64,000 nt of DNA from the NCBI RefSeq assembly GCF_017348835.2, contig NZ_CP071375.1, one strand, 5' to 3'. Origin of the DNA: Escherichia coli. Lineage in GTDB: Bacteria > Pseudomonadota > Gammaproteobacteria > Enterobacterales > Enterobacteriaceae. Positions 17,801 to 20,800 of this stretch are shown piece after piece. Made by a program: the position numbers. How positions within the stretch are numbered: the stretch's first letter is position 1; every line of letters starts with the position of its first letter.

Positions 17801-20800
17801 TACTTGTGCCTCCGTCCCGGTTCCAGGTTTCTACCGTCTGACCATTGCGCACCAGGGCAGTAAAGCGCTCTCCCAGACCATAAACTGTTTCGCCAACGCC
17901 AAGATCAAGCCGCTCAAACATATAATTTCGTTGATTATTCGTGTCCTGCACGTAGCCATTATTTTTCACCTGACTACCGGTAATACGTTCACCGTTGCGC
18001 AGAAAATCGAGTGACCAGAACTCACCTTTGCTGACACGCGCGCTTAAGTTGCCACTTTTAAACTCAGCATAACGTTCTGTGTTTTCGATTGTGACCTTCA
18101 CGTCCTGCAAAATATTGAGCGGATAATGAGGGCCGTTATTCAGCGCCCCCTGAAAATGCTCAATCCGCACCCCGACAATACCTTCCTGTGGGGAGAAAAA
18201 GCGCAGCGTAAATAAAGGCGTGTCAAGCTGCCAGGTACGTTCACGTACATCACGGGGGCAGCATAGACCACCATTTCATTACCCTGCTGTTCAACCTCGA
18301 ACACCTGAAGCGGGTGAATCAAATTGAGGCCAGGTTGAATCAACCAGTTTCCATCGCTAATTTTCATTGCCGTTCCTTAGTTCTGCACTTCTTGAGAGGT
18401 GAATTGTTGCTGGCAACGGCGTTTGCCCTGGGCCAGCTGTTCCATAACGGTTTTCAGATTGTGCGTCGTGAGTGAGTAGTAGCGTTTAGCGATAATCGCG
18501 CTCAGCAAATAACAGATCGCCGGAACAATCGTGAATAGCGCGATAATGATGCTAATCGTGGCGCTGTTCTGCGCTTTTTCTGCCGCATCATATCCGCCAT
18601 AAGCCAGCATCCAGCCGATAAGAGCGCCGCCGAAGGCCAACCCCAGTTTGAGCACAAACAGCGTGCCAGCAAAACTGATCCCGGTCAGGCGTTTACCATT
18701 GCACCACTCGCCGTAGTCGACGGTATCGGACATCATTACCCACTGGATAGGTGTCACCAGTTGATGCAACACACCAATCACGAAGATGAAGACAAACATA
18801 GTGATGCTGGCCTGCATGGGAACAAAGAACATCGCGAGGCTAATCACTGCCAGCAGGGCGTTCGTCCACCAGAAGATAGTGACTTTGCATTTCCAGTCGG
18901 TCAGCGGTTTTGCCAGAGCGGAACCAATCAGGTTACCCACGCAATAAGTGGTGAGAAAAGCGACAAACACTTCCGGCGTACCCAAAATCCATGTGACGTA
19001 ATACATCATCGCCCCACCGCGTACGCACACCGCCAGGATATTGAAAATGGTTAGTAAACCGACGATCCGCCACTGGTCGTTTTGCCAGATATCACGTAAA
19101 TCTTCCCGCATAGACGTCGTTGTAGGTGGTGCTTCAACGCGTTCTTTGGTGGTGAAAAAACAGAATGCCAGCATCATAAATGCCACCACGGAAAGGACCG
19201 CGATACCGCCCTGGAAACCGAGTGGTTTATTATCACCACCAATTAAATTAACCAGTGGCATCATCAGAACAGTAGAGAGCATGCCTCCCGCGGTCGCCAA
19301 CACAAAACGCCAGGATTGCAGCGAGATACGCTGAGTCGGGTCATTGGTGATTACACCACCCAATGCGCAGTAAGGGATATTGACGACGGTATAAAGTAAG
19401 GTAAGTAGGGTGTAAGTAATTGCTGCATAGATCATTTTGCCGTTCATACTGAGATCTGGCGTGCTATAGGCCAGTACACAGACGATCCCGAATGGCAGTG
19501 CGCCAAACAGTACCCACGGACGAAATTTACCCCAGCGAGAGCGCGTTCGATCGGCCAACAACCCCATGCAAGGATCGGAAATCGCATCCAGTGCACGAGC
19601 GACCAAAAACATAGTTCCGACAAATCCGGCAGGAATGCCAAAAATATCGGTATAAAAGAACATCATATATAACATTACGTTATCGAAAATAATGTGGCTG
19701 GCGGCGTCTCCCATGCCATAACCAATTTTCTCTTTAACGGACAACACTTCACTCTTCATCTGCTTTTCCTTGATGCTATAGGGGTGCTGAGACCGATAAC
19801 GCATTTTGTAAACCATCCCTGTGAGAGCGAATATTCCGATATCTGGTTATTAATTTATGATTCTTGTTTTATGTGATCGTGGTAGCGTTAATTCCGCTCA
19901 TATATCATTGTAAAATATAGGTTTTATATGAACTATAATGCTTTCGTGATAATACTCTGCGTGTATTAGGCGGAAAAAACTGATCTGGGGGATGTAGAAA
20001 CTCAAGGAAGTAGCTATAATGCGCCCCGCCTCCATGTAGCAATCGAGGCGCGGAAGATCGTCGTCTCCGGTGAGGCGGCTGGACTTCAAATCCAGTTGGG
20101 GCCGCCAGCGGTCCCGGGCAGGTTCGACTCCTGTGATCTTCCGCCAAAATGCCTCTACTGACGTTCTCCAACCCCTTGTAATACTGTCATTCCAGAGATT
20201 TTCTACTGCTCAATATTCAATCGGCTTCAGGAATACCTGATCAAAGGTTTTGTGATGGACGATGAGCGACTGAAGAATCCGCCTGTCGGTTCTTCTATCC
20301 TCGAACGCATCCGCGATATTCGCGCCAGCATGCGCCGTGTTTATTTGCAGGTGATTTGCCCCCTGCTGACTCTCAGCCAACTGTATCGCCATTAAGGTGA
20401 AGATGTTGTTTTACACGCTTCTGCACACCCTTTTTTATACGACTATTCTATTCCTTTAACAGCTGGCAAAAAAACTGACCTATAAACCTCACCAATAATC
20501 AGACTGCCATCAAGATTAATTTGTTCATTTAATATATCAAATCAACTTGTTTTATTTTTACTATCAAAAATAGCTCATTGCCTTACTATAATTAATATAT
20601 AAATTCGGTGATTAATTCTTAACATGCTTTTGCTAATAATCTCAATTGCTGGCCCTATAATATTGCGCTAGCATTGCTTTCTGGTTGTATCAGCGATACC
20701 CAAAAATTCTTAATACAATACTCATTCGACTGGTACTTATTTGTAACTCAGTTATATTTTGTCGCCCGGTGATTCAGAAGAATGCAAAAAACGGCTACCA

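Follow-up and report, generated by a model that had tools for sequence, protein, structure and literature searches.

The closest described enzyme to the one discussed here is YicI of Escherichia coli K-12 (PDB 1WE5, 1XSI and 2F2H), a GH31 alpha-xylosidase. According to the structural literature, Asp416 (in KTDFGE) is its catalytic nucleophile and Asp482 (in WGGDC) is its acid/base. The K-12 gene is b3656 and the gene order around it is selC - yicJ - yicI - yicH. The other described systems that must be considered are the contingency loci, such as the poly-G and poly-C tracts of Neisseria, Haemophilus and Campylobacter. Contingency tracts typically have at least 8 bases, frequent on and off variants, and length changes both ways. 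Indel rates climb steeply with homopolymer length.

We analyzed a window of 64,000 nucleotides from an E. coli genome. The gene order matches K-12, and yicI is in the position orthologous to b3656, downstream of yicJ and between selC and yicH, as judged from the ORFs, the tRNA-Sec gene and the annotation of sister genomes. It occupies 16050..18367 on the minus strand and is 2318 nt long, compared to 2319 nt for an intact gene (megablast, PGAP annotation of the sister genomes and repair with one C). An uninterrupted frame of about 772 codons is absent. The gene is split into two overlapping ORFs on the minus strand, which ORF calls, translation, Pfam and the alignment to 1WE5 all describe consistently. 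The 5' remnant (18367..18140) has 75 codons, begins MKISDGNW, has no Pfam domain, and ends at a premature TGA in the shifted frame at 18140..18142. The 3' remnant (18170..16050) has 706 codons, begins at an internal GTG that is Val67 of YicI, and shares 31 nt with the first ORF. The original prediction was that yicI carries a 1-bp frameshift early in the gene that puts two ORFs in different frames, and ORF calls and translation bear this out. The sizes it gave for the split, 75 and 706 codons, are also right. Of the 75 N-terminal codons, however, only the first 38 are native YicI and 37 are read in the shifted frame, since the break falls at codon 38/39 and the stop at codon 76.

The common E. 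coli allele at the break is GCTGCCCCCCGT, with a run of six C (C6), while the window has GCTGCCCCCGT, with five (C5). Alignment and a k-mer survey place this run at 18254..18258, where it reads as G5 on the plus strand. It had been predicted at about 18240-18250, which is slightly off. Alignment to yicI of other E. coli was the check suggested for the prediction. Aligned to the intact yicI of strain 88-3493, which is 99% identical, the window has only one gap and it is within the C run (C6 in 88-3493, C5 in the window). With one C put back, the gene reads through 772 codons without an internal stop, so the claim that one base is missing from a run of C holds. The intact YicI sequence that the prediction gave around the junction is the one encoded by the 88-3493 gene, and the peptide given for the window is likewise correct.

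We argue that the loss of this C is real and inherited, and that yicI is an ordinary, recent, slippage-type pseudogene in a pig-associated clone. We consider this very probable. One C would have been lost from the C6 run at codons 37-39, most likely through replication slippage, so that GCC CCC CGT became GCC CCC GT. The C6 run (nt 110-115 of the intact gene) should be the most slippage-prone site in yicI because it is the sole homopolymer of 6 or more bases in the gene. The event would be recent, because everything downstream in yicI is otherwise intact. Translation would exit the YicI frame after Pro38 and end at codon 76, leaving no full-length alpha-xylosidase.

The rest of the gene is well preserved. 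The 706-aa ORF matches PF13802, PF01055 (E = 3.5e-96) and PF21365, all over the gathering scores. It corresponds to residues 67-772 of 1WE5 without a gap and with 7 substitutions, and D416 and D482 are identical in this alignment. When repaired, the window gene encodes 772 aa and has the three Pfam domains in common with K-12 YicI. Since the remainder aligns without gaps to 1WE5 and keeps the domains and both Asp residues, the frameshift is, to judge by the sequence, the sole disabling lesion.

One can imagine a scenario where yicI still functions. This would take programmed -1 frameshifting, transcriptional slippage, or re-initiation at the GTG (18170) to give an active 706-aa enzyme. Such an enzyme would keep three GH31 domains and both catalytic Asp residues. 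There is a GGAAGG 10 nt upstream of the GTG and the 75-codon ORF ends 28 nt past it, which makes termination-reinitiation conceivable. However, the re-initiated product would be without residues 1-66 of the N-terminal beta-sandwich. The PF13802 match of the 706-aa ORF begins at profile position 13 rather than at 2. Recoding has no support. The run in yicI, C CCC CCG, provides no canonical slippery heptamer. From the run onward, 103 nt were folded, with a result no better than that of shuffled sequences (z = -0.04). Intact alleles, which need no recoding, contain the same sequence too, and over 99% of orthologs have a single frame, so the split is not a conserved arrangement. The excess of nonsynonymous changes described below also argues against retained function. 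We give a working yicI hardly any credence. The window gene is best classed as a pseudogene of the GH31 alpha-xylosidase YicI family rather than a functional member, and YicI enzyme activity has presumably been lost.

The consequences of a pseudogene here should be modest. The GPH-family transporter gene yicJ is upstream of yicI at 18377..19759 on the minus strand and is intact by ORF call. Its product is 460 aa (WP_000834439.1) and is annotated as intact in both sister genomes, PE164 and F2_81. A pattern scan, which is the only evidence for this feature, finds a terminator-like GC-rich hairpin just 3' of the yicI stop at 16008..16036 on the minus strand. Beyond the hairpin is the convergent gene yicH, according to the annotation of PE164 and F2_81. 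Because the hairpin and a convergent gene come after it, yicI is expected to be the final gene of its unit, and the frameshift would have no downstream gene on which to exert polarity. With yicJ intact, we expect the effect to be limited to the lost hydrolysis of alpha-xylosides such as isoprimeverose and xyloglucan oligosaccharides.

On the other side of yicJ is tRNA-Sec (selC, 20052..20146, plus strand), followed by a short rhuM pseudogene fragment (about 20225..20353) and setC. Relatives with the same yicI haplotype, in both its C5 and C6 versions, have a phage-type integrase beside selC instead. The content of the selC island therefore varies within the yicI haplotype. Farther along, at roughly 24600..37900, there is an island with type III secretion-related genes, with coordinates mapped from the annotation of PE164 and F2_81. 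It has a SycD/LcrH-type chaperone, a YopB/SseC-type translocon subunit, an IpaD/SipD-type needle-tip protein, the HilA-family regulator eilA, and a 2070-aa inverse autotransporter (iatC). PE164 and F2_81 are the only complete genomes that cover 80% or more of window positions 25001-50000.

It is worth considering the simplest alternative, that the strain truly has C6 and an intact yicI, and that the missing base is a homopolymer error of sequencing or assembly. Errors of -1 in homopolymers are typical of long-read assemblies, and at this C run the complete genomes showed only deletions and no C7. Some C5 genomes of other lineages also have frameshifted neighbor genes. In about 50 kb, two homopolymers of the window (25152 and 56900) are one base shorter than in both sister genomes, which makes such an error a reasonable prior for this assembly. 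The first of these is a run at 25145..25152 that is A7 in the window and A8 in PE164 and F2_81. It is at the start of a hypothetical ORF of about 60 aa between the SycD-like chaperone and YopB/SseC-like translocon genes. The second is at 56891..56905, in a gene at 56166..57667 on the minus strand, where the window has T6 and the sisters have T7, with the indel placed at 56900. It breaks the gene for a 479-aa hypothetical protein (WP_053883789.1 in PE164) in two, leaving ORFs of 197 and 258 aa. This indel is due either to mutation in the strain or to an assembly error in the homopolymer. The frame of eilA (29911..31608, plus strand) also varies among assemblies of the same clone. It is intact in the window (565 aa, with A6 at 29970..29975) and in F2_81. 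The annotation of PE164 calls it frameshifted (A5).

The sister genomes argue against an error in yicI. The region was compared by megablast to 5,426 complete E. coli genomes. Among the matches listed, only PE164 and F2_81 are 100% identical over 2421 nt. The other genomes listed span 2422 nt, except for one that spans 2421 at 98.3% identity. PGAP labels yicI "alpha-xylosidase, frameshifted" in the RefSeq records of both PE164 (LZG51_RS00320) and F2_81 (CPH39_RS00310), so the lesion itself was already known. The two strains were sequenced by different laboratories. PE164 is from a pig in Nanjing, China, and F2_81 is from a pig in Australia. PE164, a piglet strain, has been described as an O108:H9 aEPEC/ExPEC hybrid and was sequenced with Illumina NovaSeq reads and assembled with Unicycler (PMC12233904).

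It must be noted that the first 25000 bases of the window are identical to PE164. We considered that the window could simply be the PE164 record, but this is rejected beyond base 25000. Over 14201-63999 (about 50 kb) there are 3 SNPs and 3 indels between the window and PE164, and 7 SNPs and 2 indels between the window and F2_81. The two sister genomes are separated by 4 SNPs and 1 indel in 49.8 kb. None of the complete RefSeq genomes matches the window exactly. Since SNPs and indels distinguish all three, they appear to be separate assemblies of one clone, and each of them has C5.

The same allele is found well beyond complete genomes. Among contigs of other samples in NCBI, ENA and Logan, which include short-read run assemblies and metagenomes, 36 have the exact 75-aa frameshift peptide and at least 22 have the exact 706-aa product. 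The Logan run assemblies with these products include contigs of 40-78 kb. We checked 10 further loci as DNA, and all are C5 with 0-7 mismatches to the window yicI. They comprise 7 Logan run assemblies (DRR634072, SRR13992753, SRR9002279, SRR11658258, SRR22895632, SRR27418881 and ERR14374684), the NCBI draft GCA_020732225.1, and two ENA metagenome contigs, one of which has a MEGAHIT-style name. The intact parent haplotype is also present in public data, for example in SRR9203409 and GCA_017785435.1. The exact repaired 772-aa YicI is encoded on at least 24 contigs. In six intact loci yicI differs from the window by the extra C alone, and there are only 1-2 other SNPs over 8.3 kb.

One of these positions is informative. 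At 19919, which is 160 nt upstream of the yicJ ATG in an AT-rich stretch, the coding (minus) strand has T in every member of the C5 clade that covers the site. It has C in all 6 intact-parent loci and in other lineages. A scan upstream of yicJ for promoters gave no consensus match. A random error would not link C5 to a SNP, so the perfect linkage of 19919 T to C5 makes sequencing error an unlikely source of the lesion. Identical C5 in the Illumina-sequenced PE164, in F2_81 and in at least 10 more loci checked as DNA leads to the same conclusion, and a clade substitution pattern that looks relaxed also fits poorly with an intact gene. We consider the probability of an error to be very low. The original prediction left the choice between real pseudogenisation and a homopolymer error undecided, and the sister genomes, the other samples and the intact parent haplotype favor the former. 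It named resequencing that shows an extra base and restores the frame as its refutation. The datasets of other samples, as distinct from the window strain's own reads, have in effect answered this in the negative. We argue that the C was lost in a recent ancestor of the clone that includes the window strain, PE164 and F2_81. The lesion and the 19919 SNP together make a handy marker for this pig-associated clade.

Substitutions within the clade are suggestive of relaxed constraint after the lesion. The private changes of the C5 clade are 4 nonsynonymous (D291Y, R648H, R204C and V173L) and 1 synonymous, so this amounts to five substitutions only. Seven synonymous changes clustered in one metagenome contig were set aside, since they look imported or chimeric. 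Differences between yicI alleles in different lineages range from 6N:17S to 10N:62S, and the Fisher p for these against 4N:1S is 0.003-0.04. D291Y (equivalent to window position 17498) is nonsynonymous and is common to F2_81 and the draft GCA_020732225.1, which marks a sub-clade within the C5 lineage.

Another question is whether this loss is unique. The complete E. coli genomes were surveyed with tract-centered k-mers, in which each 28-base seed spans the whole C run. These seeded 3,977 of the 5,426 genomes (about 73%), and the rest, which have diverged flanks, fell outside the survey. GCT followed by C6 is found in 3,959 complete genomes, GCT followed by C5 in 17, and GCC followed by C6 in one (88-3493 only). 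Neither GCC with C5 nor GCT with C7, the +1 allele, occurred in any complete genome in this survey. C5 is therefore carried by about 0.4% of the surveyable genomes (17 of about 3,977). The GCC to GCT change beside the run was considered as a possible part of the lesion and rejected, since GCT is the allele of nearly all surveyed genomes and GCC occurs in 88-3493 alone.

The C5 genomes include diverged haplotypes that are 57-75 mismatches apart. One diverged C5 haplotype is found in the O145:H28 strains 95-3192 and RM8995-C1, and another is common to ETEC1749, rl0044, FG92-1 and FORC_031. The closest neighbors of both are identical to them except for having C6. In the protein collection there are 39 distinct frameshift peptides that share this junction on different backgrounds, and one +2 peptide variant that is on 2 contigs. 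Since the same junction is found on diverged haplotypes whose C6 neighbors are otherwise identical, we infer that the one-C deletion arose independently in several lineages. Some of the single-genome C5 cases may be assembly errors, because neighboring genes are frameshifted too (yicH in RM8082 and yicJ in ETEC1749). In the literature searched we found no paper with both "yicI" and "pseudogene", and no description of the same yicI deletion recurring in unrelated lineages. An in-vitro evolution study reports a different yicI frameshift, c.1065dupC (PMC10967516). For F2_81 the literature gave only hits on unrelated subjects. Insertion sequences have interrupted yicI in three unrelated complete genomes, NZ_CP148349.1, NZ_CP182159.1 and NZ_CP024131.1 (IS3 family, ISEc52 and IS4). 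The gene is thus lost by several routes in scattered strains.

This recurrence could be taken to mean that the C run is a phase-variable contingency switch, or a target through which some animal-associated lineages have repeatedly lost alpha-xyloside catabolism under selection. The same -1 event is present on at least 4-5 diverged haplotypes, the 39 frameshift peptides come with one +2 variant, IS elements also disrupt yicI in other strains, and several of the C5 carriers are from pigs. On the other hand, the tract has no more than 6 bases, about 0.4% of the surveyable genomes carry the off allele, and C7 is absent from the survey. Most C5 cases are tips or small clades beside identical C6 genomes, which fits mutation pressure at the longest run. 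We find a switch or a selected target of this kind very improbable. A related idea is that the run is a hot spot for recurrent loss of function where hits are favored in certain animal-gut lineages. If this were true, the intact YicJ, the linked SNP in the promoter region at 19919, and the independent IS insertions would point to repeated selection against alpha-xyloside catabolism, but we think it very improbable. We argue that slippage is enough, and that the loss of yicI was probably not selected for. Recurrence is what one expects at the longest G/C run of a weakly selected gene. It is a minor and unsurprising extension of what was known.

The practical result is that annotation of this clone should list yicI as a pseudogene. 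The clone is expected to be without an alpha-xylosidase. Beyond annotation this has little importance. The approach may be of more general use, since a homopolymer frameshift can be settled without raw reads when independent public assemblies are searched for the exact repaired product as well as for the exact products of the frameshift.

The comparison to known systems supports the same reading. Like the contingency loci, yicI has a frameshift at a G/C homopolymer in the 5' part of the coding sequence, and this frameshift recurs independently. Unlike them, its tract is 6 bases with an off state at about 0.4% and no +1 variants in the survey, so frequent reversible switching is unsupported. 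Compared to K-12 YicI, the window gene loses the frame after codon 38, where one C is missing, and reaches a stop at codon 76, so the full-length product is not encodable. The best match is to the yicI pseudogenes of PE164 and F2_81, which have the identical lesion. The window gene is 100% identical to that of PE164 and has one mismatch to that of F2_81.
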